This document shows, piece by piece, positions 47,797 to 58,415 of a stretch of 64,000 nucleotides of DNA. Origin of the DNA: Spirochaetia bacterium. Lineage in GTDB: Bacteria; Spirochaetota; Spirochaetia; DSM-27196; Salinispiraceae. The stretch lies in assembly GCA_038204425.1 (NCBI GenBank), contig JBBRCZ010000005.1, positions 1 through 64,000 of the forward strand, read 5' to 3'. A program made the translations under genes and the position numbers. The notes under the pieces are model-generated. The model was not told where the DNA came from. It was given only the letters and a program-made list of their open reading frames with translations, and did no database searches. Position 1 is the stretch's first letter. The number at the start of each line of letters is the position of its first letter.

Positions 47797-47839
47797 AGAC
47801 TCGCTTGTTCACTTCTGGGTGCCTTGCTACTATCGAGTG

Positions 47840-50308
47840 ATGTTTGACCTCAATTTACCCTTTACCAACCCAGTTGCAGTTTTTGCTGTTCTGATAGGGC
47901 TTATTCTGATAGTCCCACTTATATTCAAACCACTTCGCATTCCAGTAGTAGCAGGATTGATACTTGGGGGCCTTTTGATTGGGCCACACGGTTTGGGTTT
48001 ATTGGTGCGTGGCGAAACACCTCAACTGCTCGGAAAAATCGGCATTATCTATATTATGTTTTTGGCTGGGCTAGAAATAGATCTACACCAACTGTCCAAG
48101 CGCAAGGGTCAAACTATCCTATTTGGTGTTTTGACCTTTCTTGTTCCATTGGGCATGGGCTTTGCTGGTGCTTTTGGCCTTTTTGGCATGGCTGCAGTAC
48201 CGGCTTTACTCTTGGCCTCTATGTTTTCGTCACACACTTTGTTGACTTACCCAGAAATTAGCCGATTTGGCCTTAGTCGTAACCGCGCTGTTACCGTGAC
48301 CATCGGCGGAACCATGATCACCAATCTATGCGCTCTCTTGATCCTTGCACTTAGCGCAACCTGGGCACAAGGCAAGCTTGACCAATGGTATTTTGTACGC
48401 TTGGCTATTTCACTCTTGATCTATTGTGTGGTGGTTTTTGCTGTAATACCGTTTATGGCACGACGTGCTCTCAAGAGTTTGTCTGCTGACGGCGATATTC
48501 AGTTCCTGTTGATTTTCTGCATCATGTTTATCTCGGCTGCATTGGCACAGCCTGCAGGACTTGAGCCAGTTATTGGTGCATTTTTGATCGGGATCGCCCT
48601 CAACCGCCTAATTCCTGATAGCAGTGTACTTATGAACCGACTCAACTTTGTTGGCAATAGTCTATTCATTCCACTTTTTTTGGTAGACGTTGGTTTAATC
48701 ATTAATCCAAGTCAGTTTTTTGGCAATATACAGTCCTGGTTTTTTGCGGCTTTTATGGTTTTTGTAGCCATCGTCTCCAAGTGGATTCCAGCCTGGGTCT
48801 CCCAGAAGGCTTTTAAATTTAGCCCGGCCGAGCGAGGCATAATTTTTGGTCTGTCGGTCAACCAGGCTGCGTCTACTTTGGCGGCCGTCTTGGTGGGTAG
48901 GGAACTGGGCCTGTTTGATGACATTGTCGTAACGGCTACTGTCGTCATGATTTTGGTAAGCTGTATTGTTGGCAGTGTAGTCAGCGAACGTAGCGCACGC
49001 AAACTCAAAATGGCCTTTGCGAGCGTTAGTCATGACGAAAAAGAAGAATCAATTCGGTTGATGGTGAGTCTATCAAATCCTGAAACGGCTCCTGCCTTGG
49101 CCGAACTTGCCACCTATCTAGTTCCAAAAAATAGCAGCGAAGCCATTTATCCTACCGTTATGGTGCAAGATGGCACTCATGTCGAAGAAGACTTGGCCAA
49201 GGCCGAATCAGTTATTGCGCTAGCGATGACGCGAATTTTGCCCTTGGGCTTAAAGGCTATTCCCGTTTCTAGTTTGGATGTTAACATTGCAAGTGGTCTT
49301 CTGCGAGTTTCTAAAGCACGTCGTATTCAAGTCATGCTCTTGGGCTGGAACGGGCACTTTGGTGTCGGGCGGGCCTTGTTTGGTAGCATCCTAGATCAGC
49401 TAATCAGCAACAGCCCCTTGAGACTGGTAGTCGCCAGACTGTTTGGTTCTATTTCAGAGGTCAAACGAGTGGTGTTGATCCTTCCGCCATTTATCGAACA
49501 CCAGCAAGATATCTGGCCGAGTCTTGGAATTGTGTTTGACTTAGCCAAGCGACTTGGTCTTAAAATACTGCTGCTAAGTCAAGCTCTCACTTTAGACAAC
49601 CTGTCAAAGAACATAAAGGGTCTTCACCAATCACTTGAAACCGTAGAACTCAAGGACTGGTCAGATTTGTTGCCTAGCATGACTAAGCTGAGCAACAAGA
49701 CTGACCTGATTGCTTTGGCTCATGTCCGCAAGCACCAATTGGCTTGGCGACCCAGCCTAGATAGGCTACCAAAGAGCCTCAGCGAGACCTTCCTTGACAA
49801 CAACCTTTTGATTGTCTATCCGGGCACAAAACCGGACACCAAACGACAGCATTCTATAGCAGATGATTTGTCTGATAACGCAAGCCACTATGACAGTCCA
49901 GCAGACCAAGCACCTATTTCTTACGCACGCTACTTTGAAAGAACCAGCAAACCGGAACAAGCAATTCTAGAAGTCCTCGCTCAACAATTTGACGAACACA
50001 AAGCCTTTAGACTCCTTCATACTTTTAGCCCCGACGGAAAGTTGCAGGGGGTAGAACTCAAACCCGGTGTCATTCTCTTGCACCACCATGATGAAAACGT
50101 GGAGCAGTTTTGGATTGGCTGCGCTGTCTACTCAGACCTAGGACGACCAATCGACAGCGAGAATCCAATAGACTGTATTGTTCTGTTGGTGAGTCCTGCC
50201 CAAAAGGCGGCAGAAGAACACTTGGTGGTTCTATCTCGGATTGCGCGCTGGGTTGGGCAGGATGACTTCAAAAAAACTATCACTAGCTTGTGTACGAGCT
50301 TTTCTTAG
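47840..50308 (+). CDS. Cation:proton antiporter (CPA2) with USP-like and PTS EIIA-like C-terminal domains
   Basis: GLLIGPHG, MFLAGLE, EPVIGAF, PLFLVDVG; soluble tail ending GVILLHHH..LLVSP..EEHLVVLSRIA. Confidence 0.85.
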   Translation: MFDLNLPFTNPVAVFAVLIGLILIVPLIFKPLRIPVVAGLILGGLLIGPHGLGLLVRGETPQLLGKIGIIYIMFLAGLEIDLHQLSKRKGQTILFGVLTFLVPLGMGFAGAFGLFGMAAVPALLLASMFSSHTLLTYPEISRFGLSRNRAVTVTIGGTMITNLCALLILALSATWAQGKLDQWYFVRLAISLLIYCVVVFAVIPFMARRALKSLSADGDIQFLLIFCIMFISAALAQPAGLEPVIGAFLIGIALNRLIPDSSVLMNRLNFVGNSLFIPLFLVDVGLIINPSQFFGNIQSWFFAAFMVFVAIVSKWIPAWVSQKAFKFSPAERGIIFGLSVNQAASTLAAVLVGRELGLFDDIVVTATVVMILVSCIVGSVVSERSARKLKMAFASVSHDEKEESIRLMVSLSNPETAPALAELATYLVPKNSSEAIYPTVMVQDGTHVEEDLAKAESVIALAMTRILPLGLKAIPVSSLDVNIASGLLRVSKARRIQVMLLGWNGHFGVGRALFGSILDQLISNSPLRLVVARLFGSISEVKRVVLILPPFIEHQQDIWPSLGIVFDLAKRLGLKILLLSQALTLDNLSKNIKGLHQSLETVELKDWSDLLPSMTKLSNKTDLIALAHVRKHQLAWRPSLDRLPKSLSETFLDNNLLIVYPGTKPDTKRQHSIADDLSDNASHYDSPADQAPISYARYFERTSKPEQAILEVLAQQFDEHKAFRLLHTFSPDGKLQGVELKPGVILLHHHDENVEQFWIGCAVYSDLGRPIDSENPIDCIVLLVSPAQKAAEEHLVVLSRIARWVGQDDFKKTITSLCTSFS

Positions 50309-50490: not shown

Positions 50491-50507
50491 TTGGCACGAT
50501 TATTGCA
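50491..50507 (+). promoter_or_regulatory. Sigma-54 (-24/-12) promoter
   Basis: TTGGCACGATTATTGCA matches TGGCACG-N4-TTGC with GG-N10-GC spacing, just upstream of the cheY-like ATG. Confidence 0.8.
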
Positions 50508-50529: not shown

Positions 50530-50895
50530 ATGAAGTTGCTAATCGTAGACGACTCCAACATCATGCGCCGGGCCATAGAAAAATATCTAACAGATTTTAA
50601 TCTCGAACTGGTAGGAACTGCCGGTGACGGCGAAGCAGCACTTCAACTCTTTAAGGCTCATCTTCCTGAATTGGTTACGCTTGATATCACCATGCCGCGC
50701 ATGGACGGCTTGGCTTGTCTTGATGAGATTATGCGTTTGCGCCCTGAAACTAAGGTCTTGGTAATTAGCGCTCTAAAGGACCCGTCTACTGGTCTTCAGG
50801 CTTTGCGCAAAGGTGCTAAAGGATTCTTGGCCAAGCCTTTTTCTCCAGAAGAAATACGTAGTGAAGTTCAGCAGATCCTTGGGCTATCATCATGA
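50530..50895 (+). CDS. Single-domain CheY-like response regulator
   Basis: LIVDDS, TLDITMPRMDG (Asp52), VISA, AKPF; GAGG RBS. Confidence 0.92.
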   Translation: MKLLIVDDSNIMRRAIEKYLTDFNLELVGTAGDGEAALQLFKAHLPELVTLDITMPRMDGLACLDEIMRLRPETKVLVISALKDPSTGLQALRKGAKGFLAKPFSPEEIRSEVQQILGLSS

Positions 50896-51338
50896 CTGAA
50901 GTAGAACTAAAAGCATTTACTCGTGTTGTTACTCAATACTTTAACAACGTCACCGGTACAGCGGCTCAACTTGGGCTACCCTACATCAAAGGAGAACGCC
51001 AAGAAACCTTTGATTATACTGGCGTGATTGGCATTTCTGGCTCCCGCAAGGGTGGTGTTTATTACACCGCTGGCAAACAGCTTTTAGAAGCATTGGGCGC
51101 CTTTATCCTTGGGGATGAGCCACTCGATGATGAAGCGCTTTACGATTTGGTAGGCGAGCTTACCAACACTATTGCTGGCAACATGCGAGAGATTTTTGGC
51201 TCCAACTTTTTGATTTCGGTCCCAATCATCATGAAGGGTAAAATTGATGATATCGTTATCAAACTCAAACCACCAGTCTTTATAATTCCAATAATCTGGA
51301 ATGGCATGAACAGTCACCTAGCGATTGGCCTGGAGTAG
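50892..51338 (+). CDS. cheX: CheX family phospho-aspartate phosphatase
   Basis: YTGVIGISG, GELTNTIAGN (E-x2-N motif), ISVP. Confidence 0.9.
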   Translation: MTEVELKAFTRVVTQYFNNVTGTAAQLGLPYIKGERQETFDYTGVIGISGSRKGGVYYTAGKQLLEALGAFILGDEPLDDEALYDLVGELTNTIAGNMREIFGSNFLISVPIIMKGKIDDIVIKLKPPVFIIPIIWNGMNSHLAIGLE

Positions 51339-51341
51339 AAC

Positions 51342-54080
51342 ATGGAACATTCAATGCTCGACATAATGTGGGTGATAATGGCTGCAAGCTTGGTTTTTGT
51401 TATGCAGGCCGGCTTTGCCATGGTAGAATCTGGCCTTACTCGCTCCAAAAATAGTATCAACGTAGCTATAAAGAATCTGACAGATCTTGGCGTCTCTTTG
51501 ATCGTATACTGGCTAGTGGGCTTTGGCCTCATGTTTGGACTGAGCTTTTCTGGCATTTTTGGCACTAGCGAGTTCTTCTTTGACAGCGGCGACGCCTGGC
51601 CAATGGTCTTTTGCCTTTTTCAGGCCGTGTTCTGCAGCACTGCTGCCACCATCGTGTCGGGCGCAGTGGCGGAGCGCATGCGCTATATTTCGTACATCTT
51701 TGCCACCATACTTATGGCGCTGGTGATCTACCCAGTATTTGGCCACTGGGCCTGGGGCGGCGCCTTGCAAGGGTCAGCAAGTGGTTGGCTGGCTAAGCTT
51801 GGCTTTGTTGACTTTGCAGGGTCTACCGTTGTGCACAGTGTGGGCGCTTGGGTAGCGCTGGCGATTCTAGTTATTATTGGACCTCGCGCCGGTCGCTACA
51901 AGAGCGATGGAACGGTTGCGCCCTTGAGCGGTAGTAACATCCCCATGGCAGTATTGGGAGTAATACTCTTGTGGTTTGGTTGGTTTGGCTTTAACGGCGG
52001 AAGCACTCTGGCAGCGAGTGAAAACGTAGCGGGGATAATCCTTCGCACTTGTTTGGCCGGTGCGGCTGGAATGCTATCTGCATTGCTAATCGGTTGGCCA
52101 CTACTCAAAAAACCCGACGTCAACTTAGTCATCAACGGCGCATTGGCTGGACTTGTTGCCATCACCGCTGGCTGCCACGCCGTCAGTGCGCCTCAGTCAA
52201 TCTTGATTGGTCTGGTTGCTGGCGTGCTGATGTTCGCAAGTAGCATTCTTCTCGACAAATTGCGCATAGATGATGCGGTTGGTGCAATTCCTGTGCACTT
52301 GGTAGCCGGCATCTGGGGTACCTTGGCGGTTGCAATTTTTGGCAATCCAGACATTTTAGGAACCGGCTTGAGCCCATTAGAACAGCTTGGTATACAGGGC
52401 TTAGGTATAACAGTTTGTGGTATGTGGTCGTTTGGCGTGGCTTGGTTAGTTGTAAAGCTTATCAATGCTATCACGCCAATTAGAGTAAGCCAAATAGACG
52501 AAGCCAATGGACTCAACAAAGCAGAACACGGAGTAAGCACCGAGATCTACGATCTATTCTCAGTATTGGATCAGCAAGCAAAAACGGGCGATTTGAGCCT
52601 ACGCGCGCCTGAAGAACCATTTACTGAGGCCGGACAAATTGCCGGGATGTACAACAACGTTATGAGCAAACTGGAAGCCGATACTATTGCCAAAGATGAA
52701 TACTTGCAGATACTGCACAATGTCAGTGACGGTCTTTTTTTGCTGGACCAAGATGGGGTTATTGGGCCGTATTACGCCGCTTCGCTCAACAAGATATTTG
52801 AAACAGATCAATTAGCAGGCCAAAAACTCAGCGCTGTTCTGGCACGTTTTGTGGCCGAAGAAACACGTGCAGTAGCCGAAGACTTTTTGCAGTCCTGCTT
52901 CGATTCAAGAATTGCTTGGCGTCATTTAGAAAAAATGAATCCATTGCTGGACGCCATGGCCTATTTTGACAACGGACAAGGTGATTTTTTGGAAAAAAAC
53001 TTGCAGTTTCTTTTTAGGCGCCTGGAAGACGGTAGTGTCGTTAAACGATTGTTAATTTTAGTACGTGACACAAGTGCCGAGAAAAATCTAAGCGAAGAGA
53101 TAGAAAAAACGCGCGAACTAGGCAAGCAGGAAATGGAAATGCTGTATCGCGTAATGCACGTTGAACCAAAGACTTTGCAAGAATTTCTTGACGGTCTACA
53201 TCGGGATCTTGAAGCTATAAATGGCCAGTTTAGGGCTGGAGAAGGCAATGTTCACGAAAGGCTCAGCCAGGTTTTTCGCTTAACACATGCCATAAAAGGT
53301 GACGCTGAGCTACTTCAACTTGATTTTATTGGTGGCAAAGCAGAAGAACTAGAGAATCGTGTGCGAGAACTTTTGAAGGTTTCTGAGCCCGGCGGAGAAG
53401 AATTTTTGGCACTGACCCTGCTGTATTCGGAACTTGCTTCGGCATCTACCAAACTGAGAGAACTTTTACAAAAATGGACTGGCTTCCAAGCGCAAACTCA
53501 GTCTATCGGATTTGATGGTTACTTGCGCCAATCTTTGGCCAGCATGGCCAGCCGTTTGGCAAGCCGCTACAACAAAGAGGTAAGTCTAGATGCAAGCGGC
53601 CTCAGTTTGCAGTTTTTGTCACCGCAACTGCGAAAGCCCATCAAAGATATCCTGGTGCAGTTTGTCAGAAACGCAGTGTTTCACGGTTTTGAGACGCCCG
53701 ATGTGCGTGGGAACCAAGGAAAGGCTAGCGCCGGCCTTATTCAAATTAGCGGGCTCCGCCAAGATAAAATGCTAGTTGTACGTTTTAGGGATGATGGCAA
53801 GGGACTTGACACGGGCGCACTACGACAAGAAGCGGTAAAAAGAGGCTTGATGGACAGTGCCAAAGCTAGTGCTATGAGTGAACGCGATGCACTGGGCTTA
53901 ATCTTTCAAAGTGGCTTTACCACGGTAGCGGTCGCAGATTCGGTGGCGGGCAAGGGTATAGGCATGTCACTGGTTCGCAGCTTGGTCAAGGAAACTGGTT
54001 CTAGCCTGAGTATGCGTACCAAAAAGGGTGCCTACACTGAGTTTGTTCTAAGTATTCCGTTGTCGGGAGCCAAGCAATGA
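51342..54080 (+). CDS. Ammonium transporter fused to HAMP-like, PAS-like, Hpt and CheA-type HATPase domains
   Basis: Amt: MQAGFAMVESG, FQAVF, HWAWG, DFAGSTVVH, WFGWFGFNGGS, DDAVGAIPVH. Hpt: FRLTHAIKGDA. HATPase: VRNAVFHG, DDGKGLD, IFQSGFTT, GKGIGM. Confidence 0.92.
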   Translation: MEHSMLDIMWVIMAASLVFVMQAGFAMVESGLTRSKNSINVAIKNLTDLGVSLIVYWLVGFGLMFGLSFSGIFGTSEFFFDSGDAWPMVFCLFQAVFCSTAATIVSGAVAERMRYISYIFATILMALVIYPVFGHWAWGGALQGSASGWLAKLGFVDFAGSTVVHSVGAWVALAILVIIGPRAGRYKSDGTVAPLSGSNIPMAVLGVILLWFGWFGFNGGSTLAASENVAGIILRTCLAGAAGMLSALLIGWPLLKKPDVNLVINGALAGLVAITAGCHAVSAPQSILIGLVAGVLMFASSILLDKLRIDDAVGAIPVHLVAGIWGTLAVAIFGNPDILGTGLSPLEQLGIQGLGITVCGMWSFGVAWLVVKLINAITPIRVSQIDEANGLNKAEHGVSTEIYDLFSVLDQQAKTGDLSLRAPEEPFTEAGQIAGMYNNVMSKLEADTIAKDEYLQILHNVSDGLFLLDQDGVIGPYYAASLNKIFETDQLAGQKLSAVLARFVAEETRAVAEDFLQSCFDSRIAWRHLEKMNPLLDAMAYFDNGQGDFLEKNLQFLFRRLEDGSVVKRLLILVRDTSAEKNLSEEIEKTRELGKQEMEMLYRVMHVEPKTLQEFLDGLHRDLEAINGQFRAGEGNVHERLSQVFRLTHAIKGDAELLQLDFIGGKAEELENRVRELLKVSEPGGEEFLALTLLYSELASASTKLRELLQKWTGFQAQTQSIGFDGYLRQSLASMASRLASRYNKEVSLDASGLSLQFLSPQLRKPIKDILVQFVRNAVFHGFETPDVRGNQGKASAGLIQISGLRQDKMLVVRFRDDGKGLDTGALRQEAVKRGLMDSAKASAMSERDALGLIFQSGFTTVAVADSVAGKGIGMSLVRSLVKETGSSLSMRTKKGAYTEFVLSIPLSGAKQ

Positions 54081-55171
54081 ATAACCCTGACGGTCCAGTC
54101 TGCAATCACGAGCGCTGCAAGCTCAACCAGTTTTTTCACCACTCTCGAGAAGCCATGTTCATAACCGAGCGGGATGGCAGCTTTGTAGATGTCAACCCGG
54201 CTTTTGAGGATTTACTTGGTTACTCGCGTAGCCATCTTTTGACCAGTCAAGTCAGCTTGGTGCTAGCAAACGAAGATGATAGAGTCGACTATCAACGCAG
54301 CATCGAAACCGATGGTGTGGTACATGACTACCCAATAGCCCTGCGACACCAAGATGGCACACTCTTGTTTGGCATGATTGACGCCATTGTATGGCGCTCC
54401 AATGGACGAATAGCTGGCTACCACGGCATAATCCGCACACGCGCTGCACTTATGGAGTCGTTTCGCAGCTATCTCAACCGACTCAAAGCTGAGAAACATC
54501 AAGTGAGGCAAGAGCGCCGCAATCTCATTTCTGATACGCAAATGCTGACCCGCTATTTGACTGATGACTTGATTGAATACATCAAAAAAACTGGCCGCAA
54601 TCCACTAGAAACCAGCCAACAAAGGGTGAGCGTCTTGTTCTTTGACATTCGCAACTCAACCGGAATTGCCGAAAAGCTTAGCCCGGATCAGTTTGCTTCT
54701 TTTTTGAGTGACATCCTGACCGACATTATGGATCTAATTTACGGCTGCCAAGGCTCGGTTAATAAAATACTGGGCGACGGCATTATGGCTACCTTTGGTG
54801 TGCCACTCTCTACAGGTACCGACTCTTTTCATGCTGTTGAGGCGGCTTTGCACATTCGGGACTACCTCAAGACTTTTAACGATGTTAGGCCCGATTTTCT
54901 CATACAACCAGTTGCTGCCGGCATTGGCATTGCAACCGGAACGGTCTTCGCCGGTGTTATTGGATCGGTTAGACGGCAAGAATACACCGTACTTGGTGAC
55001 GCAGTAAATATCGCTAGTCGATTGGAGTCTCTCACCAAACAAGCAGGAGAAACTATACTACTCGACGAAACCACTTTTCAAGAGGTGCGCGAAACCTATG
55101 CCTGTCGCCCGGTTCTGGAAGGTCGCCTGCGGGGTCGAGAAGAAGAAGTGCGTATTTACGGCATAAGATAG
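54077..55171 (+). CDS. PAS-domain class III adenylate cyclase
   Basis: PAS (VDVNPAFEDLLGYSR..LRHQDG); FFDIRNST, VNKILGDG, EYTVLGDAVNIASRLE. Confidence 0.92.
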   Translation: MNNPDGPVCNHERCKLNQFFHHSREAMFITERDGSFVDVNPAFEDLLGYSRSHLLTSQVSLVLANEDDRVDYQRSIETDGVVHDYPIALRHQDGTLLFGMIDAIVWRSNGRIAGYHGIIRTRAALMESFRSYLNRLKAEKHQVRQERRNLISDTQMLTRYLTDDLIEYIKKTGRNPLETSQQRVSVLFFDIRNSTGIAEKLSPDQFASFLSDILTDIMDLIYGCQGSVNKILGDGIMATFGVPLSTGTDSFHAVEAALHIRDYLKTFNDVRPDFLIQPVAAGIGIATGTVFAGVIGSVRRQEYTVLGDAVNIASRLESLTKQAGETILLDETTFQEVRETYACRPVLEGRLRGREEEVRIYGIR

Positions 55172-55261: not shown

Positions 55262-56563
55262 ATGATCAAGCGAAGCAGACTCTCCATATATACGTTTATT
55301 GCGGTATTTAGTTCTATCTTAATCGTTGGCACGCTTGCGATGCCTTTGGCCTTGGATAGTATTCAAAAAAACTACATTTCCATCCAAGCAGACGTTAACG
55401 CCCGTCAAGCAAAAGCTATGGCTCAGTTTATTCGCTCACGCGTGGCTCAAGGCGTAAGTCGTGAGCAGGTGATCGAGGACTTCCAAGCAAGCATCCAAGG
55501 CAGTGCCACCGAACGTGGTTATGTCTGCATTGTGGACCGCATAAGCACCAATTTTTTGTGTCATCCCATGACTTCGATGCTTGGCCAATCGGTGGCGGTT
55601 AAAAAAGCGGTCTTTGACCGTAGTTTTAACCGCAATCAATTTGAACCTTGGGAACAAGCTATCACGAACCCGCAAAGTGGGAGCGGACTTTTGGCTTTTG
55701 ACAACTTTAAGGCCGAGGAAGTTGTCCACTCAGAAGTTATTGAAGAACTTGGTTGGGTTGTAAATTCTCATGAGAACACAGAACGAGTCCAAACCGAAAT
55801 AGCAAACATCCGCACCTATGTTGTCATCGGCGCTGCTATTTTTGCTTTTCTTTTGGCGTTTCCAATTTCGTTTGCTGTGCGATCGGTTAGCCGCAGATAC
55901 GAAAGACAAATCGAACATAGCAACATGCTGATTGCTGCAGAACAAGAAAAAGCTGACAACTTGCTGCTTAACATCTTACCTTCTTCTATTGCTCGTCGTA
56001 TGAAAGACGGCCAAAAAATTATCGTCAATCACTTTGAAAAAGTAGGCATCCTGTTTTGTGACATAGTCAACTTTACGCGATTTTCTGCGCGCACTACGCC
56101 AGACAACGTGGTTCGTTTGCTCAATCGCATTTTTTCTGACTTTGACGCCCTGTGCAACAAATATGGCATAGAAAAAATAAAGACTATCGGCGACGCCTAC
56201 ATGGCAGTTGGCGGACTACCGCTCGCGAGTGACAGGCCCTTGCAAAGACTGGCCGACCTTGCTTTGGAAATGCTTACAGTTGTTGAGAAGCTCGACCTAA
56301 ACGTGCAAGTGCGTATCGGTTTGCACGTTGGAGATGTAGTTGCAGGAGTAATTGGTACCAACAAGTTTAGCTACGACCTTTGGGGCGACGCGGTCAATGT
56401 TGCATCAAGACTAGAATCCAGCGGTCAAAAAGGCCGAGTGCACGTTAGTCAAGAAGTCAAAGATGTACTTGGAGACGCGTATAGCTTTGTAGACAATGGC
56501 TTAGTTGCGCTCAAGGGTAAAGGCAAACTCCAAACCTGGTTTTTAGAAAAGAAACCAGTTTAA
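55262..56563 (+). CDS. Membrane-bound class III adenylate cyclase with extracytoplasmic sensor domain
   Basis: Two TM segments flanking a Cache-like region; LLLNILP, FCDIVNFT, EKIKTIGDAYM, SYDLWGDAVNVASRLES. Confidence 0.92.
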   Translation: MIKRSRLSIYTFIAVFSSILIVGTLAMPLALDSIQKNYISIQADVNARQAKAMAQFIRSRVAQGVSREQVIEDFQASIQGSATERGYVCIVDRISTNFLCHPMTSMLGQSVAVKKAVFDRSFNRNQFEPWEQAITNPQSGSGLLAFDNFKAEEVVHSEVIEELGWVVNSHENTERVQTEIANIRTYVVIGAAIFAFLLAFPISFAVRSVSRRYERQIEHSNMLIAAEQEKADNLLLNILPSSIARRMKDGQKIIVNHFEKVGILFCDIVNFTRFSARTTPDNVVRLLNRIFSDFDALCNKYGIEKIKTIGDAYMAVGGLPLASDRPLQRLADLALEMLTVVEKLDLNVQVRIGLHVGDVVAGVIGTNKFSYDLWGDAVNVASRLESSGQKGRVHVSQEVKDVLGDAYSFVDNGLVALKGKGKLQTWFLEKKPV

Positions 56564-57541: not shown

Positions 57542-57872
57542 CTACAAGATGTTGAATGCATTGACTCTACTGGCTCCCGACACCACTAAACTTGTCGCTG
57601 CTGTTTCGTTAGAGCCATTTGCGTTGACCGAGCTTGCGTACATCAAGATAGGGCAGAAAATTTTAGTCAACAACCATTTCTTCCGTGCTTTTATTTGATT
57701 AACTAATGTTTGCGGCAATGGCACTGGAAATGTTTATTCTGTCGAAGGAACCTAAGTTATAGTCTTGCCTAACTACAACGACGCTCGGCATAACTGCAAA
57801 TAGGCAAGAACTCAGACTGGTAAAAAATACTAGTCCTAACAAAGCCAAACGAAAAATTGCCTGGCGGTTTAA
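57542..57872 (-). pseudogene. GIN-domain (DUF2807-like) lipoprotein remnant
   Basis: LSSC lipobox, LGSFDRINISSA, then in-frame stops around NFLPYLDVR, then LVVSGASRVNAFN in another frame. Confidence 0.55.
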
Positions 57873-57945
57873 ACCGCCGGACTGATTTCTGCCCGGCGCG
57901 CCTTTTGCATTTTTTCTCATTGTAACCATACGTAAGTCCTTGGCC

Positions 57946-58098
57946 CTCGTTGAGGGTCACTTTGCCGTCACCATTGGCATCTGCCGCACCGTCCAAGTCC
58001 TGCATTAAACTACACCTACGGCGCGCGTCATTTATGGCCCACAAGAGCCGTTGTCGTTCTTGCCCACCATTGTTGGCACCAACAAAAAGCGCGATTCT
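57946..58098 (-). pseudogene. Caspase-family (peptidase C14-like) protein remnant
   Basis: RIALFVGANNGGQERQRLLWAINDA joined almost directly to GAADANGDGKVTLNE; catalytic region absent. Confidence 0.65.
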
Positions 58099-58103
58099 CT
58101 CAA

Positions 58104-58415
58104 CTATTCCGCTGGACTCAGATTGAGCTTAAAGTGGTCTTCGAGTTTCAATTGCCAGTTTGACCGTTTGAGAATGCTAGTAATCTGCAAACAAGTTTGA
58201 TCGACCGGGATTTCGCTACTGGCAGTAATAAAGTAGAAATTTTCAAAACCTGGTTCGTCATCAAACTGATAGGCGTACGGCAATAGAACTGAACCTTGCT
58301 GCTTGCCTTCACTCGTTGTATGTAGTGTTGATGGATAGCGTAGTGTCATATGCTGACTTCCATCAATGGAAATAATGATGCCAAATGGGCTACCATTTGC
58401 GACATACAATACTTG
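58104..58415 (-). pseudogene. C-terminal fragment of an anti-sigma/ActD-like protein
   Basis: QVLYVANGSPFGIIISIDG..LRYP..LLPYAYQFDDEPGFENFYFITA. Confidence 0.55.

Follow-up and report, generated by a model that had tools for sequence, protein, structure and literature searches.

The 64,000-nucleotide stretch at the start of contig JBBRCZ010000005.1 of the Spirochaetia bacterium assembly GCA_038204425.1, hereafter called the window, contains a gene in which an Amt ammonium channel domain is fused to a histidine kinase. This gene is the third of a four-gene operon, preceded by cheY and cheX and followed by a nucleotide cyclase gene, in which stops and starts overlap or nearly abut (Table 1). 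The fusion is real, conserved and well formed; its two halves are of known kinds, and their combination is new. It has an Amt-HAMP-PAS-Hpt-ATPase architecture assembled from two cassettes, its pore, ligand and catalytic residues are intact, and it stands in the gene order cheY-cheX-kinase. This arrangement is best read as an ammonium-regulated kinase that would phosphorylate the adjacent CheY and be opposed by CheX, a reading to which a probability of roughly 0.7 can be given on the basis of the sequences.

Table 1. Coordinates of the operon, its candidate promoter and the domains of the fusion protein (positions in the window; aa, residues of the encoded protein).
Feature	Position	Strand	Evidence and residues
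Sigma-54 (-24/-12) promoter-like site	50492..50507	+	strict match; ends 22 nt before cheY ATG
cheY-like single-domain response regulator, 121 aa	50530..50895	+	D7, D8, D52, S80, K102; Response_reg E 6e-28
cheX phosphatase, 148 aa	50892..51338	+	E89-x2-N92; Pfam CheX E 4e-15; start overlaps cheY stop
Amt-HAMP-PAS-Hpt-HATPase fusion gene	51342..54080	+	single open frame, 912 aa; Pfam, AlphaFold model, relatives
Amt domain, aa 1-398	51342..52535	+	W138/S221, F97/F217, H165/H319, exit residue N265
N1/N2 ligands of the Amt domain (Q22, E29, N45, D48, T103, S106) and switch (K44 + Y118)			positions mapped from PMC11152129
HAMP-like linker, aa 399-449	52536..52688	+	most conserved segment, median identity 67%
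PAS-fold domain, aa 452-580	52695..53081	+	followed by coupling helix, aa 578-604
Hpt four-helix bundle, aa 609-713	53166..53480	+	H649, K652, E671; Pfam Hpt
CheA-type ATPase (P4-like), aa 724-906	53511..54059	+	N, G1, F and G2 boxes; chain stops 6 residues on
PAS + class III nucleotide cyclase, 364 aa	54077..55171	+	Pfam PAS + Guanylate_cyc; start overlaps kinase stop

Domain architecture of the fusion protein

The initial annotation of this DNA, made from the letters and translated frames, had described one uninterrupted 912-residue open reading frame (ORF) carrying an Amt domain with its twin histidines, Phe gate and HWAW tryptophan, then a HAMP-like linker, a PAS-like segment, an Hpt domain and a CheA-type ATPase with no CheW domain behind it. 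All of these elements are found, and the residues are located at the positions claimed: His165 closes the motif STVVH (161-165) and His319 the motif IPVH (316-319), HWAW occupies residues 135-138, and Phe97, Phe217 and His649 are present. The motif of the HAMP-like linker lies at residues 416-434. The annotation had also suggested a profile search as a check. Pfam matches Ammonium_transp at residues 10-398 (E 4e-115), Hpt at 612-699 (29.2 bits, cut-off 24.6) and HATPase_c at 767-908 (40.1 bits, cut-off 26.4), all three over cut-off; at E<=0.1 the fusion protein gives no Pfam match to CheW, P2 or H-kinase_dim, and none over the HAMP-like and PAS-like parts.

Support for these two parts comes from structure prediction and from relatives. 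An AlphaFold model of the fusion computed with 119 sequences (mean predicted local distance difference test score, pLDDT, 92.5; predicted template modelling score, pTM, 0.60) places the Amt bundle first, then two helices (401-415, 429-447), a PAS-type fold (464-576), a single helix (578-604), the four-helix Hpt (609-713) and the ATPase (724-906); its least confident stretch is the HAMP-PAS junction, residues 448-460. The alignment with Sd-Amt1, an Amt-HAMP-diguanylate cyclase of Shewanella denitrificans, runs to residue 441, within the predicted HAMP domain of Sd-Amt1, and PAS_9 is matched in 5 of the 22 aligned relatives. A second model, restricted to the cytoplasmic half, superposes on the LOV/PAS protein 7r5n (Z 12.3, root mean square deviation (rmsd) 2.8, 141 residues aligned), on the P1 domain of CheA in 1tqg (Z 15.0, rmsd 2.3, 102 aligned) and on the P4 domain of CheA in 1b3q (Z 21.7, rmsd 2.5, 177 aligned).

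Two features go beyond the initial annotation: the P2 domain and the P3 dimerisation hairpin are missing too, and the gene belongs to a cheY-cheX-kinase-cyclase operon. Only about 10 residues lie between the end of Hpt at 713 and the start of the ATPase at 724, which leaves no room for P2 or for a P3 hairpin, and P3 is judged absent for this reason. In the fold search no segment of the chain aligned with P3, the alignment to the P3-P4 region of CheA beginning at residue 356 of the T. maritima protein. One observation weighs against its absence, namely that the profile alignment to CheA runs from the ATPase over helix D of Hpt onto part of P3; in the second model residues 685-742 form one continuous helix, which may be a P1/P3 hybrid.

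The relatives were collected as 119 other listed proteins and aligned with the query to give a set of 120. No more than 24 residues follow position 908 in any of them. H649 and K652 are present in 120/120 and E671 in 119/120; the ATP boxes are likewise found in 119/120, the exception for the boxes being a truncated record. The two halves differ in conservation, with a median identity of 64-67% over the Amt and HAMP parts and of 37-40% over the kinase half.

A receptor cassette joined to a CheW-less kinase cassette

Profiles of single segments, built from the 120-protein alignment, separate the protein into two cassettes. The profile of the linker (399-449) matches all nine Amt fusions with another output that were tested (GGDEF/EAL, class I kinases, SpoIIE and PAS only) and none of 39 CheW-less kinases devoid of Amt. 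The profile of the PAS segment (452-580) behaves in the opposite manner, with matches in 39/39 of these non-Amt CheW-less kinases, in 0/59 CheW-bearing CheAs and in 0/9 of the other Amt fusions. The seam is situated at about residue 450 and coincides with the low-confidence stretch of the model. The protein consists of the Amt and HAMP parts of the fused ammonium-receptor clade, joined to the PAS-Hpt-ATPase part of CheW-less sensor kinases.

The kinase is of a CheW-less sensor-kinase type with a swappable input. At least 95% of its PAS-Hpt-ATPase half is matched by 37 non-Amt CheW-less proteins, some of which list HAMP, NIT, CHASE4 or four-helix sensor families, whereas 59 CheW-bearing CheAs cover 30-57% of it. 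Class III histidine kinases (HKIII) have a sensory input, an Hpt domain and a CheA-type ATPase but no dimerisation or CheW domain, and their genes accompany those for a single-domain response regulator and for CheX. Because the PAS-Hpt-ATPase cassette is common to the 37 non-Amt CheW-less kinases and CheAs cover so much less of it, the kinase half fits an HKIII-type architecture, as a putative member of the class, and not a truncated CheA. The label of class II, or CheA-like, given in the initial annotation is not retained: P3 and P5 are missing, the protein has its own sensor and the cassette is that of CheW-less kinases. The HKIII class itself is said to come from Adebali et al. 2017 (J Bacteriol 199:e00218-17).

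In a quick tree of the ATPase domain (37 rows), 11 long-tailed CheAs are separated from a group formed by 20 fusions and 2 non-Amt CheW-less kinases, with a Shimodaira-Hasegawa-like approximate likelihood ratio (SH-aLRT) support of 97. The same tree, made without bootstrap, also weighs against a clean separation from CheA, four of the six non-Amt CheW-less kinases falling on the CheA side.

Elsewhere in the host genome (G000), two canonical CheAs are encoded, together with 9 methyl-accepting chemotaxis proteins (MCPs) over cut-off, flagellins and two more CheW-less kinases, both of which adjoin cheX/cheY-like genes. The first (contig C7, 117092-121806, L140) is a membrane-bound Hpt/ATPase kinase with a weak MASE6 match, located behind genes for a HAMP-cyclase, cheY and cheX. 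The second (C21, 17822-21695, L141) is soluble and is followed by a cheX-like gene, cheY and a gene for a further receiver protein.

The cheY-cheX partners and the neighboring genes

The start of cheY is placed at the ATG at 50530 and not in the longer frame from 50395, because a purine-rich stretch lies upstream of this ATG and the relatives start there as well. The best sequence matches of the product in the Protein Data Bank (PDB) are chemotaxis CheY proteins, and CheX likewise matches CheX entries of the PDB. The acidic pocket, D52, T/S80 and K102 of CheY are kept in 21/21 relatives, as are E89 and N92 of CheX. The cheY-cheX pair can be observed directly upstream of the fusion in all 21 related loci with upstream DNA, the contig of a 22nd ending there; the carrier genomes are kin, so that these 21 cases are not independent.

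The fourth gene is more variable. Of the 19 loci with downstream DNA, 6 have a cyclase in this place, 5 have a CBS-SpoIIE phosphatase and 8 have neither. The CBS-SpoIIE (PP2C) phosphatase replaces the PAS-cyclase behind the fusion in L127, L128, L129, L131 and L136. In the window, residues D190, K230, D234, T304, N311 and R315 of the PAS-cyclase, in what we take to be their catalytic roles, suggest an active adenylyl cyclase.

Further neighbors complete the picture of the region. Just upstream of the operon, an 829-residue Na/H exchanger with Usp-like and weak PTS EIIA-like C-terminal domains is encoded at 47819-50308 (+). A second nucleotide cyclase of 433 residues follows the PAS-cyclase at a distance of 90 nt (55262-56563, +); its N-terminal region lies between two hydrophobic stretches and was assigned to no family. 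Two short frames of 91 and 101 residues (57769-58409, -) may derive from a single disrupted gene.

Sigma-54 and nitrogen context

The site in front of cheY follows the -24/-12 consensus of sigma-54 promoters. The host genome contains 12 strict matches to this consensus (4 in one Markov simulation), of which 7 lie within long ORFs and 5 between genes in front of one. Three of these five intergenic sites precede the three amt-bearing operons, that is the fusion operon and both amt-glnK operons. Among the 2174 ORFs of at least 150 residues, a strict site occurs in the 150 nt before only 5, two of which are the other amt genes. In the relatives, a looser pattern is found upstream of cheY in 6/21 cases as against 0/147 coding windows and 0/144 other upstream regions; a wider one, chosen after the variants had been viewed, is found in 10/21 as against 0/144. 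The host has rpoN, which is over cut-off in 22 of the 23 carrier genomes. It also has a NifA-like sigma-54 activator (L164:2338-3900, on contig C1; score 534.5, TIGR01817 cut-off 528.85), a candidate activator of the nitrogen regulon as judged by this match; no nifH is over cut-off in the host genome.

Several results speak against sigma-54 control. A strict site occurs in 14 of 100 shuffled windows, so that the site alone is within chance, 11 of the 21 relatives are without even the wider pattern, and no enhancer motif shared by the regions upstream of the three amt operons was found. A generic scan for sigma-70 promoters and terminators remained at chance level. Another strict sigma-54 site of the host lies directly ahead of a sigma-70-family-like gene (C1:539564, +), an arrangement that recalls the RpoN-RpoS cascade of Borrelia.

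Proposed pathway and its output

By analogy with Sd-Amt1 and with Ks-Amt5, the Amt-kinase receptor of Ca. Kuenenia stuttgartiensis, the Amt part of the fusion would form a trimer. Ammonium ions would pass the Trp/Ser, Phe and twin-His filter and be diverted into the N1/N2 pocket, where the E29/K44/D48/Y118 switch would shift the C-terminal HAMP helices while little ammonium crossed the membrane. As P3 is missing, the dimer contact that brings the ATPase to His649 would come from two protomers pairing through their HAMP-PAS segments. Autophosphorylation of this histidine would be followed by transfer of the phosphate to D52 of CheY, encoded two genes upstream, and the adjacent CheX would reset the phosphorylated regulator. 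Transcription by sigma-54, in common with the two amt-glnK operons, is likely for this operon, and it suggests that the cell would produce the receptor when nitrogen is limiting and so detect the return of ammonium. Ammonium may either raise or lower the kinase activity, since the two precedents differ: the activity of Sd-Amt1 rises with ammonium (PMC11152129), and the phosphorylation of Ks-Amt5 goes up at low and down at high ammonium (PMC5764959).

Concerning the target of CheY, the flagellar switch comes first at somewhat less than even odds, with a change of reversal or flexing bias as the effect. This change would be non-adapting because the module has no methylation sites and no CheR or CheB. 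The presence of fliM in 23/23 carriers says little in favor of this target, as most spirochaetes can be expected to have the gene. The co-encoded cyclase or phosphatase follows closely in likelihood as the controlled partner. An alternative that differs in output only, and that can be advanced with slightly less assurance than the flagellar switch, is that CheY acts on such a second-messenger or phosphatase partner, for instance the translationally coupled PAS-adenylyl cyclase, and not on the motor. The cyclase gene overlaps the stop of the kinase gene here and stands behind the fusion in 6/19 loci, with the CBS-SpoIIE phosphatase in 5/19; cyclases also flank CheW-less kinases devoid of Amt (C7 of the host, and L137), and separate CheA/CheW/MCP systems are available for motility in the host genome. 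These arguments are balanced by the 8/19 relatives that have neither gene downstream of an invariant cheY-cheX pair, by the lack of a receiver domain in both cyclase and phosphatase, and by the chemotaxis CheYs that are the best PDB matches of the regulator.

The flagellar target can be extended to a complete motility pathway free of array and adaptation. In such a pathway, a trimeric ammonium receptor would replace the array, CheW and the dimerisation domain of CheA in one chain, and the bias of the motor would be set by absolute ammonium through a dedicated CheY and CheX under the nitrogen control of sigma-54. Taken as a whole this extension is tentative, and rather doubtful. If true, it would represent an HKIII-type kinase with a defined ligand in genomes without pilT.

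Receptor or transporter

The Amt domain is very likely the input of the kinase in place of an MCP/CheW array, as the initial annotation had proposed. The structures closest to it are those of Sd-Amt1 and Ks-Amt5, ahead of transporters. A tree was made from 71 Amt domains, of which 23 belong to this fusion type, 22 are further Amts of these genomes, and 10 fused and 16 stand-alone ones serve as outgroups. In it, all 33 signalling fusions form one branch with an SH-aLRT support of 100, apart from the stand-alone Amts, those of the host included; these 33 comprise the 23 of this type and 10 with other outputs from five phyla. The tree is a quick one without bootstrap, and its outgroups were picked by similarity to the query from 80 loci matching the whole protein, which are general Amt matches with no fusion of this type among them. 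An Amt-PAS-GGDEF-EAL protein of an uncultured Desulfocurvus (L001:290-4090) is nested among the spirochaete fusions with a node support of 94, hinting at a possible exchange of the receptor cassette. An Amt-PII fusion of genome G342 (L161:1073-2824) groups with the stand-alone Amts, outside the receptor branch.

The pore and the site of ammonium binding are highly conserved. W138, S221, F97, F217, H165 and H319 are each present in 120/120 fusion proteins, as are E29, K44, D48, T103, S106, Y118 and N265; Q22 and N45 are found in 109/120, and the six N1/N2 ligands are complete in 21 of 22 fusion loci. In 10 of the 120 proteins Q22R and N45V are changed together, and an 11th has V45 and is truncated at position 22 (P0088, P0090, P0093, P0099, P0100, P0106, P0109, P0115, P0117, P0119 and P0120; locus L127). 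The arginine at position 22 could represent a built-in cation, and hence a locked or retuned receptor.

The published signature of ammonium receptors (AmR), Q-X6-E-X15-N-X2-D-[F/T]-X54-60-T-X2-[S/T], provides less support, and several points weigh here against a receptor. The fusion protein fails its literal form, with Leu49 and a spacing of 53. When the spacing is widened to 52-62, 17/120 fusions match if F/T is required and 109/120 if it is not. According to PMC11152129, Phe49 is no ligand in Sd-Amt1, and the Amt domain of the fusion is likely a variant of the signature that works like an AmR. The six N1/N2 residues are also complete in 12 of 20 control Amts (L142-L161), drawn from 35 further Amt matches in the carrier genomes; these 12 comprise 11 stand-alone proteins with glnK and 1 Amt-PII fusion, and one of the two stand-alone Amts of the host (C4:34880-36271) has all six ligands. 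The signature was for this reason rejected as a proof of receptor function. Either it over-calls receptors or the glnK-linked Amts and Amt-PII proteins may be dual-function. As these residues do not discriminate, the case for a receptor rests on the tree and on the HAMP cassette.

The initial annotation had described the domain as a transceptor, importing ammonium and regulating the kinase at the same time. This is now considered unlikely, for all that the residues of the pore are all intact, that stand-alone Amts linked to glnK, which are probably transporters, carry the same N1/N2 and Asn-exit residues, that plant AMT1 transporters sit in the same signature cluster (PMC11152129) and that the sigma-54 site is of the kind found before uptake operons. 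A receptor is better supported because the characterised receptors Sd-Amt1 and Ks-Amt5 mainly bind ammonium and barely transport it, as reported in PMC11152129, and because 23/23 carrier genomes hold another Amt. The host has two, both with a PII-like gene behind them. Moreover, the domain belongs to the fused-receptor branch and not with the glnK-linked Amts, and no PII gene adjoins the fusion here or in the 22 related loci, the one nearby case (L131) being about 3 kb off on the opposite strand. In this last genome (G196, L131:8192-12503), the operon is divergent from nifH-like, two PII and nifD-like genes, recognised by their N-termini.

The Amt domain could also serve mainly as a membrane anchor or oligomerisation scaffold, the kinase being regulated through PAS by an internal signal or another ligand. 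Such a role is improbable. It would agree with the occurrence of the PAS-Hpt-ATPase cassette without Amt, even in the soluble protein of C21, with the drop in model confidence at residues 448-460 and with the paired ligand changes in 10-11 of the 120 relatives, but the pore, N1/N2 and HAMP make up the most conserved part of the protein (64-67% against 37-40%), beyond the needs of a passive anchor. A further point against the proposed reading is that the PAS domain could be a second or even the main input.

Pili, distribution and integrity of the fusion

HKIII proteins have reportedly been given a role in type IV pilus motility, and co-occurrence with pilT is said to have been noted. Regulation of pili by the fusion would agree with its architecture and its cheY/cheX partners, which fit the HKIII design, and with weak matches to the pilT model in 15/23 carrier genomes. 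It is nevertheless very improbable, for none of the 23 carriers, complete genomes included, is over the TIGR01420 cut-off, as against 5 of 14 controls, and the weak match of the host is a 540-residue PilB/GspE-like ATPase, recognised by its length and by the adjacent pilC/gspF-like and secretin-like genes.

The fusion recurs across related genomes. Among the 119 further proteins listed, all but one align with the query over at least 97% of its length, at identities of 46-59%. A CheW or dimerisation family is annotated in none of the 119, and those with a named organism all come from spirochaetes; one carrier known in culture is Spirochaeta dissipatitropha (WP_460054415.1). A full-length match is present in 7 of 40 relatives. 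In an even sample of the phylum, the kinase half is matched (E<=1e-75) in 20 of 401 genomes, its own included, and one of these matches has no Amt (L137), which makes the distribution of the Amt-kinase fusion patchy.

The initial annotation had named misassembly as a possible objection to the fusion. An artefact of this 24-contig assembly, or an accidental read-through, is rejected as having a negligible probability in view of the 118 full-length relatives, the complete genomes that carry the fusion and the single public contigs that cross the Amt-kinase junction without differences (X2, 51782-54363, possibly from the source sample; X3, 50983-52952, from another sample of the same study).

Significance

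No paper on this fusion, and none on HKIII histidine kinases, was found in the literature searched, which lacks most subscription papers. The main text and two supplementary files of PMC11152129 make no mention of Hpt, CheA, Treponema or spirochaetes, the domain picture of its Fig. 7B lying outside the text search. The novelty has to be measured against the facts that both halves are of known kinds and that fusions of Amt to many outputs are to be expected. If the proposed reading is right, an HKIII-type kinase is paired with a cheap and defined ligand whose binding site is known. Two questions then become testable, namely what lets a CheA-type kinase function in the absence of P3, CheW and an array, and by which means the trimeric Amt controls an output of the dimer type; a candidate cognate response regulator and a phosphatase, missing for Ks-Amt5, are supplied as well. 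The lack of a pilT over cut-off in the 23 carriers challenges the pilus role that is said to have been proposed for HKIII.

Comparison with known systems

The best match is Sd-Amt1 (8QJ3, 8QJ4, 8QPF; PMC11152129), with 47% identity and an rmsd of 1.7-1.8. The two proteins have in common the pore, the N1/N2 ligands, the Lys/Tyr switch, the Asn exit, the HAMP-like linker and a separate amt-glnK pair in the genome. The ligands Q22, E29, N45, D48, T104 and S107 and the switch Lys44/Tyr119 of Sd-Amt1 correspond to the same residues in the fusion, with T103, S106 and Y118 in place of T104, S107 and Tyr119, the spacing of the signature being one residue shorter and Phe49 being replaced by Leu49. The output differs, a PAS-Hpt-ATPase kinase with dedicated cheY and cheX taking the place of GGDEF.

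Ks-Amt5 (6EU6; PMC5764959) is likewise an Amt receptor with an N1/N2 site joined to a histidine kinase, with 44% identity over Amt. It is described with a class I DHp-CA kinase, without HAMP and without an identified response regulator. In the fusion, by contrast, the phosphorylated histidine would be carried by Hpt, the ATPase is of the CheA type, HAMP and PAS are placed in between, and a candidate regulator and phosphatase are encoded in the operon.

The likeness to HKIII extends to the sensor, Hpt and CheA-type ATPase, to the missing dimerisation and CheW domains and to the single-domain regulator and CheX next door. The fusion departs from that class in its input, a complete 11-helix Amt receptor, in the absence of pilT over cut-off in its 23 carriers and in an operon that has no soluble chemoreceptor.

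With CheA (T. maritima 1B3Q and 1TQG; PMC10782961), the protein has in common a P1-like Hpt, a P4-like ATPase and the partners CheY and CheX, but it is devoid of P2, the P3 hairpin and P5/CheW, and has its own membrane sensor. From the assimilatory Amt-GlnK systems, finally, it has kept the Amt fold and pore, together with a sigma-54 site like those before the two amt-glnK operons of the host; it differs from them by having no adjacent glnK, by its 510 C-terminal signalling residues and by its separate branch in the Amt tree.

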